DNA from: Bacilli bacterium
GTDB taxonomy: Bacteria; Bacillota_I; Bacilli_A; RF39; UBA660
DNA: 64,000 bases
Assembly: GCA_017544165.1 (NCBI GenBank)
Contig: JAFYER010000001.1
Location: forward strand, 18,946 to 82,945
Direction: 5' to 3'
The translations under genes and the position numbers were made by a program. Under the pieces are notes generated by a model. That model saw only the letters and a list, made by a program, of their open reading frames with translations, was not told the origin of the DNA and searched no databases. Of this stretch, positions 37,076 through 37,321 are shown one piece after another. The first letter of the stretch is position 1; each line of letters begins with the position of its first letter.

Positions 37076-37321
37076 ATGGAAAGTGTCTTATCTGCTACGA
37101 TGATTGCCGTAGGAATTATCCTTGGATTAACTTTTTTAGGTTTATCCATAGGGCTAGGAGTTTTAGGAGGAAAAGTTGCTGAGTCAATTGGTAGAAATCC
37201 TGAAACTAAAAATGATGTTCTTCATTCAATAATGACCATTTTGGTTGTCCTAGCAATATTCTTACTATTCTTATTTTCATTTATCTATATACTATTATAT
37301 TTAAACCCATTTGCAAGTTAA
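37076..37321 (+). CDS. ATP synthase c-subunit-like hairpin protein lacking the ion-binding carboxylate
   Basis: 81 aa. Helix 1 is Gly-rich ([11 protein letters not shown]). The polar loop [12 protein letters not shown] matches the c-subunit R(Q/N)P loop. Helix 2 ([29 protein letters not shown]) contains no Asp or Glu. Confidence 0.6.

Follow-up and report, generated by a model that had tools for sequence, protein, structure and literature searches.

What can a rotary ATPase do once the residue that binds its ions has been lost? In rotary ATPases, ion coupling is taken to centre, universally, on the membrane carboxylate of subunit c. A gene that raises this question was found on a 64,000-nucleotide stretch of DNA from a Bacilli bacterium (GTDB lineage Bacillota_I; Bacilli_A; RF39; UBA660), taken from contig JAFYER010000001.1 of assembly GCA_017544165.1 (positions 18,946 to 82,945) and hereafter named the window. 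An initial annotation, made from the letters of the window, had described the gene product as a hairpin protein resembling subunit c but devoid of the carboxylate. Our analyses identify this protein, on profile and alignment evidence, as a genuine c-subunit homologue without the membrane-embedded carboxylate. It is encoded in one conserved unit with an F1-like head and three putative surface proteins, and no subunit a was matched among the proteins of that unit. The reading that we favour, and hold to be probable if only just, is that the unit encodes a rotary or mechanical device, derived from F1Fo and driven by ATP, that has no coupling to ion transport and would act on its own surface proteins. 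The gene in question is the following:

37076..37321, + strand: c-subunit homologue of 81 aa with an ATG start, a Gly-rich helix 1, an R40-N41-P42 loop, and Ala60 at the position of the ion-binding Glu/Asp

The open reading frame (ORF) starts about 10 nt downstream from an AGGAG Shine-Dalgarno sequence, and its translation is the one quoted in the initial annotation. Two hydrophobic segments were predicted, at residues 9-27 and 55-73. The c-subunit layout attributed to the protein was confirmed as homology: the Pfam profile ATP-synt_C (PF00137) aligned with E = 1.3e-6 and 29 bits, which passes the gathering score of 24, and a phmmer search against all chains of the Protein Data Bank (PDB) returned almost exclusively c subunits. 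The best of these matches was c1 of A. woodii (4bem_J, 1.5e-12), and others included chloroplast c (6e-8) and the I. tartaricus c subunit (1yce, 1.6e-7). In the PDB alignments, Ala60 takes the place of the ion-binding glutamate (E65 of I. tartaricus) and Leu27 that of Gln32, a Na+ ligand; the positions of the Ser, Thr and Tyr ligands are occupied by hydrophobic residues, and the R40-N41-P42 loop is aligned to R-Q-P. The statement that helix 2 is free of Asp and Glu was thereby borne out, the last acidic residue of the protein being D47. The distance from the loop arginine to the carboxylate position, previously given as about 23 residues, is corrected here to 20 (R40 to position 60). The alignments also place His50, Ser51 and Thr54 at the cytoplasmic end of helix 2 and not in mid-membrane. 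All scores against the NCBIfam c-subunit models were below the cut-offs (best, 44.8 bits against 71; TIGR01260, 23 against 43.95), and the same was true of the c-like orthologues of loci L046 and L037.

To describe the family, two samples were used. Among 5.8 billion proteins searched, 145 relatives of the c-like protein were retrieved, 120 of which were listed (61-100% identity). In addition, one genome per bacterial species was scanned with the conserved peptides of the family, giving 442 loci that encode a relative. The best 80 of these 442 were fetched and, together with seven metagenome contigs, form a set of 87 loci with 63 distinct c-like sequences. The loss seen in the window recurs in every orthologue of both samples. 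None of the 120 listed homologues has an Asp or Glu in helix 2, and all 120 carry the loop GRNPETK. Among the 63 distinct sequences, the glutamate column holds Thr in 28, Ala in 17, Ser in 13 and Val in 5, and the Gln32 column holds Leu, Ile, Val or Met. An exhaustive HMMER search over 1.84 billion cluster representatives found about 30 clusters of the GRNPETK type, none of which has a carboxylate at the aligned position. According to these alignments, loss of the carboxylate is a trait of the whole c-like family.

What the family has kept is equally uniform. The helix-1 glycines G13, G17, G22, G26 and G28 are invariant, as are the loop residues A35, E36, G39, R40, N41, P42, E43, T44 and K45 (AE-x-x-GRNPETK), and conservation extends to the outer-face termini (M1-E2 and N77-P78). 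In c subunits, the glycines of helix 1 are required for ring packing, and in canonical enzymes the polar loop touches gamma and epsilon. Pairwise ratios of nonsynonymous to synonymous substitution (dN/dS) for the c-like gene among the relatives of the window were 0.01-0.10; the gene is under strong purifying selection. Because helix 2 lacks an acid in 120 homologues, the glutamate column is restricted to T, A, S or V in 63 distinct sequences, and dN/dS is this low, the gene is by its sequence record no chance ORF.

As a separate observation, five proteins of the representative library outside the window (P0156, P0166, P0170, P0181 and P0233) consist of three to eight fused c-like hairpins and reach 631 aa; in rough phmmer alignments, many of these hairpins seemingly lack the carboxylate.

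The c-like gene lies within an operon-like unit of 13.7 kb (29706-43363), in which neighbouring genes overlap or are separated by gaps of 1-17 nt and which has a terminator-like hairpin on each side. The unit and its borders comprise the following features, beside the c-like gene itself:

29612..29632, + strand: terminator-like hairpin at the left border, closing the upstream ddl gene
29658..29687, + strand: promoter-like site TTGACT-18-TACAAT with extended TG, 19 nt upstream of the giant gene; a consensus match only
29706..35693, + strand: giant protein of 1995 aa with one N-terminal transmembrane (TM) helix and a large ectodomain
35700..37058, + strand: single-pass membrane protein of 452 aa, present in the loci that extend far enough upstream
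37325..38077, + strand: protein of 250 aa, candidate b-delta fusion or peripheral stalk, with an N-terminal TM helix, a coiled region and a weakly delta/OSCP-like C-terminal part
38061..39401, + strand: F1 alpha-like subunit of 446 aa from the first ATG (18 nt later and 440 aa according to gene callers), P-loop GDKKTGKT
39401..40750, + strand: F1 beta-like catalytic subunit of 449 aa with Walker A GGAGVGKT, catalytic GVGERSREG and the DEVSEED loop
40740..41003, + strand: protein of 87 aa at the atpC position, candidate epsilon (beta-sandwich domain only)
40996..41511, + strand: polytopic membrane protein of 171 aa with 4-5 helices, poorly conserved, with a counterpart at the same position in all loci
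41495..42223, + strand: single-pass membrane protein of 242 aa with an N-terminal TM helix and a beta module common to it, the 452-aa protein and the giant protein
42225..42563, + strand: soluble protein of 112 aa with no function assigned, seen only in the RF39-like group of the window
42572..43363, + strand: F1 gamma-like subunit of 263 aa (Pfam ATP-synt, E = 9e-23, 81.8 bits against a gathering score of 39.9)
43605..43624, + strand: terminator-like hairpin at the right border

The ddl gene upstream of the unit was identified by the Pfam family Dala_Dala_lig, and promoter-like sites are no more frequent in the region than expected from shuffled sequence. The gene order in the window is giant, 452-aa, c, 250-aa, alpha, beta, 87-aa, 171-aa, 242-aa, 112-aa and gamma. 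Across loci, the constant set consists of the giant gene, the 452-aa homologue, c, the b-delta-like gene, alpha, gamma, beta, the 87-aa gene, the 171-aa-like gene and the 242-aa homologue. In most loci, c, b-delta-like, alpha, gamma, beta and epsilon-like follow one another in the same order as atpE-F-H-A-G-D-C, with no atpB. A divergent group has the giant and 452-aa genes positioned between c and the stalk gene, so that the linkage has outlasted a rearrangement. We also noted that at one locus (L007:10416-20246) a phage-type integrase and phage-like genes (SSB, YqaJ and NinB-like) directly follow the c-like gene and separate it from the rest of the cluster.

The head encoded by this unit appears complete. 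In the window, the alpha-like protein has kept the Arg finger (GERPAID), and its C-terminal domain is shorter than that of canonical alpha. Across the alpha-like family, the P-loop is present and the Arg-finger position is basic in 77 of 77 sequences. The beta-like protein matched solved F1 beta subunits in the PDB with 338-354 bits, and GxGERSREG is kept in all 76 sequences of its family, Walker A in at least 70 of them. Judged by these motifs, a catalytic Glu and the DELSEED-type loop, the head formed by the alpha, beta and gamma-like proteins is catalytically intact. Its members are divergent, with scores against the canonical NCBIfam models of 407 against 554 and 369 against 484 for alpha, 416 against 463 for beta and 52 against 194 for gamma. 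The alpha, beta, gamma and c proteins of the window fall below every curated NCBIfam cut-off, whether canonical, alternate/N-ATPase, or mycoplasma Type 2 or Type 3. The beta-like proteins of two other loci, L037 (13179-14576) and L024 (13187-14548), do pass the TIGR01039 atpD equivalog (470.6 and 468.4 against 462.85).

The candidate b-delta and epsilon proteins match known subunits weakly. The 250-aa protein aligned to Pfam OSCP with E = 0.0068 (profile positions 29-163 of 172), and an OSCP match was obtained for 6 of 32 members of its family, the best at 7.6e-4; comparison with real delta sequences by hhalign gave P = 0.065, with controls at 0.95-0.99. The 87-aa gene stands directly after beta in every locus that reaches beyond the beta gene. 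The sole PDB profile match of its product is the mitochondrial delta subunit, the equivalent of bacterial epsilon, at a weak E = 0.66, and hhalign comparison with epsilon gave P = 0.02 (controls, 0.44-0.95).

Subunit a is missing from this set. No cluster protein matched ATP-synt_A in Pfam at E <= 1, and none of the genes called within 10 kb on either side in related contigs gave a match to this subunit. The only polytopic membrane protein of the cluster is the 171-aa protein, in which the motif LRLENTAG was considered as a counterpart of the subunit-a motif LRLFGNMYAG with its essential arginine. This candidate was rejected, the arginine being K, I, Y or another residue in close relatives. 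The alignment of the 171-aa family contains no invariant residue and no conserved arginine, the protein gave neither a sequence nor a profile match in the PDB, and hhalign comparison of the family with helices 5-6 of real a subunits stayed at background (P = 0.61-0.89). An AlphaFold2 (AF2) model of the protein, built on a shallow alignment of 16 sequences and of mediocre quality (predicted local distance difference test, pLDDT, of 64), had no Foldseek match. On these comparisons, both halves of the known ion path, the carboxylate of the rotor and the arginine of the stator, are absent. The claim in the initial annotation that the cluster is not a conventional ATP synthase is supported by the absent subunit a, by the NCBIfam scores below cut-off and by the linkage to surface proteins.

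The 171-aa protein has a partner in the unit. In several Lachnospiraceae and Bacillota loci, the 171-aa-type and 242-aa-type proteins are fused into one ORF of about 400 aa, which argues for a physical interaction of the two proteins. The fused ORFs are found at these places:

L025:4927-6135: fused 171-/242-aa-type ORF
L049:14970-16172: fused 171-/242-aa-type ORF
L058:10399-11613: fused 171-/242-aa-type ORF
L059, L060, L064, L065, L069, L070 and L072: further fused ORFs of this type

The 242-aa protein is in turn related to the two proteins encoded at the upstream end of the unit. By profile-profile comparison (hhalign probabilities of 98%, 94% and 91%), one TM-plus-beta module is common to the 452-aa protein, the 242-aa protein and roughly the first 320 aa of the giant protein, and the three are paralogous single-pass membrane proteins with ordinary N-terminal signal-anchor helices. 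In the 452-aa protein, residues 6-37 form the TM helix and residues 40-207 an all-beta domain next to the membrane; a basic tip on the cytoplasmic side is conserved, and a disordered Gly/Asn linker precedes two FN3-like beta-sandwiches. Its AF2 model (pLDDT 80.7) matched tandem FN3 domains in a Foldseek search against the PDB (E about 1e-7); these domains were seen in this paralogue only, the sole one of the three that was modelled. The giant protein has no match in Pfam or NCBIfam, and BLAST of its sequence against itself and against the C-terminus of the 452-aa protein revealed no repeats. Its presence is nevertheless a regular feature of the loci: of the 67 loci that could be evaluated, 65 have an ORF of 1200 aa or more (mostly 1700-2370 aa), with an N-terminal hydrophobic helix, directly upstream of the 452-aa homologue.

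Species-level genomes of Bacillota that carry the unit number at least 80 and may number 442. By their labels, carriers comprise Bacilli, RF39-like ones among them, and metagenome-assembled genomes (MAGs) of the 'Mycoplasma sp. CAG:472' type, Lachnospiraceae, Oscillospiraceae, Erysipelotrichaceae and other Clostridia, mostly from gut samples, and the system is found across many fermentative gut lineages. The Lachnospiraceae carriers include the cultured Kineothrix alysoides KNHs209 and Hominiventricola filiformis CLA-AA-H276, and also Candidatus Merdisoma. One Lachnospiraceae MAG, Tb.RUG.141 (JAEEIH01 contigs), contains three paralogous whole clusters (L025, L058 and L065) with differing c-like sequences, which fits an accessory surface system better than core bioenergetics. 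Together with the spread over fermentative lineages, these copies argue, indirectly, against the cluster being the sole atp locus of a genome that needs an F1Fo enzyme. The organism of the window carries a peptidoglycan and division cluster (MraZ, MraW, PBP, Mur ligase and Ddl) and uses the standard code, and is therefore no wall-less mycoplasma.

How the system relates to known rotary ATPases was then considered. With the Na+-type c rings of I. tartaricus (1yce) and A. woodii (4bem), the c-like protein shares the two-helix hairpin, the GxGxGxG pattern of helix 1, the R-(Q/N)-P loop and the NPF C-terminus. It differs from them in that the glutamate is replaced by Ala (T, A, S or V in the family), the Gln32 ligand by Leu, and the Ser, Thr and Tyr ligands by hydrophobic residues. 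In A. woodii, the ring still binds Na+ and carries it across the membrane, in concert with a normal subunit a. To our knowledge, the only precedent for a c hairpin without Glu is the second one of A. woodii c1. As in that hairpin (4bem_J, domain 2), where the residue is Gln, the carboxylate position is non-acidic here; the first hairpin of c1 keeps its Glu, however, whereas the present system has neither a c copy with a carboxylate nor a subunit a. N-ATPases retain a full ion-binding c subunit, subunit a and AtpQ/AtpR. Like these alternate F1Fo enzymes (TIGR03305, TIGR03322 and TIGR03324), which form a second, accessory operon in some genomes, the present unit is a divergent F-type operon, but its proteins score far below the alt_F1F0 cut-offs (alpha, 329 against 750.5; beta, 363 against 752; c, 20 against 130.85).

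The closest functional analogues appear to be the F1-like ATPases of mycoplasmas, which were said to have no equivalent elsewhere (Beven 2012, PMC3369863). The Type 3 F1-like X0 ATPase is needed for the MIB-MIP surface system, which cleaves antibodies, and its X0 sector consists of a 12-TM protein and an 87-kDa protein with C-terminal TM helices, without any c-like or delta-like protein (Berlureau 2026, PMC12994834). Like Type 3 (MSC_0618/0619; PMC3369863, PMC12994834), the present system combines an F1-derived head of alpha-, beta-, gamma- and (here a candidate) epsilon-like proteins with non-Fo membrane proteins and no ion-pump signature, and its head is tied to surface proteins, as that of Type 3 is to MIB-MIP. 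MSC_0618_beta is the second-best NCBIfam model for the beta of the window (382 bits against a cut-off of 570; alpha, 287 against 520). In contrast to Type 3, the present system has kept a c subunit and a b-delta-like stalk, has other partners and resides in walled Bacillota; the window cluster encodes no 12-TM protein, MIB-MIP itself not having been searched for. The Type 2 or G1-ATPase of M. mobile is a gliding motor organized in cytoplasmic dimer chains (PMC11864180; also PMC8406192). Here, too, an F1-like ATPase goes together with very large surface proteins, and the output of Type 2 is mechanical; among NCBIfam models, glide_MMOB1660 ranks second for the window alpha (375 bits, cut-off 600; beta, 333 against 850). 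The beta of the window, however, matched G1 beta with 276 bits, below the 338-354 bits for canonical F1 betas, and, unlike in Type 2, the giant protein is encoded in the same operon as the ATPase. We know of no description of a c ring for the G1-ATPase. Full-text literature searches found no description of the present system. It may represent an ancestral form from which the gliding and MIB-MIP ATPases of mycoplasmas were derived by loss of the c subunit.

These observations can be assembled into a working model. The c-like protein would descend from an F-type ancestor, similar to the Na+ type, and would have kept the features for forming a ring and docking the stalk while losing every ion ligand. 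An alpha3beta3-gamma head with the epsilon-like protein, the b-delta-like stalk and the c subunit would, if assembled into a single complex, make an ATPase that only hydrolyses ATP. Hydrolysis would drive rotation of the c ring together with gamma and epsilon, and the b-delta-like protein and the 171-aa/242-aa pair would serve as the stator. Such rotation could not be coupled to the movement of H+ or Na+, because the carboxylate is missing from the ring, and subunit a, with its arginine, from the cluster; it could proceed without ion exchange because the surface of the ring would be uniformly hydrophobic. The membrane sector, composed of the c ring, the polytopic 171-aa protein and the TM helices of the three paralogous single-pass proteins, would relay mechanical work to the cell surface, the ectodomain proteins being either attached to the ring or worked on by it as by a cam. 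The output might be a rotation or a cyclic conformational change of the surface proteins, leading to adhesion and release, to movement of the surface or to processing of bound material. The more specific proposal, that this is an undescribed class of rotary machine in which an ion-blind c ring serves as an ATP-driven mechanical rotor or cam actuating the giant protein and its two paralogues, is tentative, and we would sooner expect it to need revision than to stand as it is.

Other explanations account for part of these data. A conventional ion-translocating F1Fo enzyme could bind H+ or Na+ in an unconventional way, for example through the conserved His50, Ser51 or Thr54 or through a partner protein. 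It would explain why the F1 genes are complete and intact by their catalytic motifs, why the operon order is F-type and why the beta-like proteins of some lineages pass the atpD cut-off. Such coupling is nevertheless very improbable: neither helix of any family member has an acidic residue, the three candidate residues lie at the cytoplasmic end of helix 2, subunit a is missing and the only polytopic partner lacks a conserved arginine, the c-like proteins stay under every NCBIfam c cut-off, and one genome holds three paralogous copies. Loss of a residue held to be essential, together with the missing subunit a, might also mark a decaying or non-functional duplicate of an atp operon. Pseudogene decay is rejected because dN/dS is only 0.01-0.10; moreover, loop and glycine residues are invariant, catalytic motifs are intact across 76-77 sequences, and synteny has been kept in at least 80 species-level genomes of two classes, so that a decaying operon is the least credible of the explanations considered here. 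Scarcely more credible is a functional role of the carboxylate-free ring itself, as a lipid-plugged pore or channel gated by the F1-like head. A channel function of c rings has been proposed in other settings, and the outer-face termini M1-E2 and N77-P78 are conserved; yet the NPF ending is also found in ordinary c subunits, and a pore leaves the linkage to three large surface proteins unexplained.

A non-rotary function deserves more consideration, although we regard it as unlikely. Here, the c ring and the b-delta-like protein would merely anchor an ATPase resembling FliI or that of type III secretion systems, which would aid the export, insertion or assembly of the giant protein and its paralogues. 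The alpha and beta subunits are homologous to FliI/SctN ATPases, all three partners are inserted in the membrane with large ectodomains, and genetic linkage alone does not distinguish a machine that assembles these proteins from one that actuates them. A chaperone ATPase would, on the other hand, need none of the rotor and stator parts that are under selection here (gamma, the epsilon-like protein, c with its invariant loop and the b-delta-like protein), and the N-terminal signal-anchor helices of the partners suit the Sec/YidC pathway. Some observations weigh against the mechanical device that we favour. The c ring could be a static anchor rather than a rotor, and the assignments of the delta-like and epsilon-like proteins rest on profile scores below threshold. 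The Arg finger of alpha is needed for fast multisite catalysis in canonical F1, but in the present family this residue is Lys in 59 of 77 alpha-like sequences and Arg in 18, including that of the window. A lysine at this position may mean slow or altered catalysis, in which case most members of the family may be slow ATPases.

Elsewhere in the window, a Tad-like locus (52151-56599) encodes TadE-like, ParA/TadZ-like ATPase, T2SSE (CpaF-type) ATPase and two T2SSF proteins, and its likely Flp pilin gene is found 9 kb away, directly after the gamma-like gene:

43407..43601, + strand: Flp/Fap-type pilin of 64 aa, downstream of the gamma-like gene and conserved there only in close relatives of the window

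This pilin probably belongs to the Tad-like locus and not to the ATPase unit. At the right end of the window, the segment 57337-60761 encodes a large serine recombinase (domains Resolvase, Recombinase and Zn-ribbon) and, after it, a Mob_Pre relaxase-like protein; this pair suggests that a mobilisable element has integrated here. Four ORFs of 493-751 aa (8422-10230, 18026-19837, 49801-52056 and, on the - strand, 60777-62258) had no Pfam match at E <= 1e-4; that of 751 aa sits just upstream of the Tad-like genes.

The finding has consequences for how such genomes are read. Their sources label some of the c-like proteins (P0111 and P0117) as 'F0F1 ATP synthase subunit C' or 'F-type H+-transporting ATPase subunit c'. 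With such names, and with beta-like proteins that pass the atpD cut-off, automatic annotation reports an ATP synthase where the ion path is absent, and metabolic reconstructions of reduced-genome gut bacteria may assign to them a chemiosmotic ATP synthase that these bacteria do not have. An F-type-like system that is under selection while all of its c copies lack the carboxylate and no subunit a accompanies them offers a natural test of a role of the c ring outside ion transport. If the favoured reading is true, the mechanical use of F1-like ATPases would be extended past the mycoplasmas to hundreds of species of gut Bacillota. On the more specific and tentative proposal of an ion-blind mechanical rotor, their machine would provide a third kind of rotary output, next to ion pumping and the flagellum. 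With cultured carriers such as Kineothrix alysoides and Hominiventricola filiformis, this question is directly testable.

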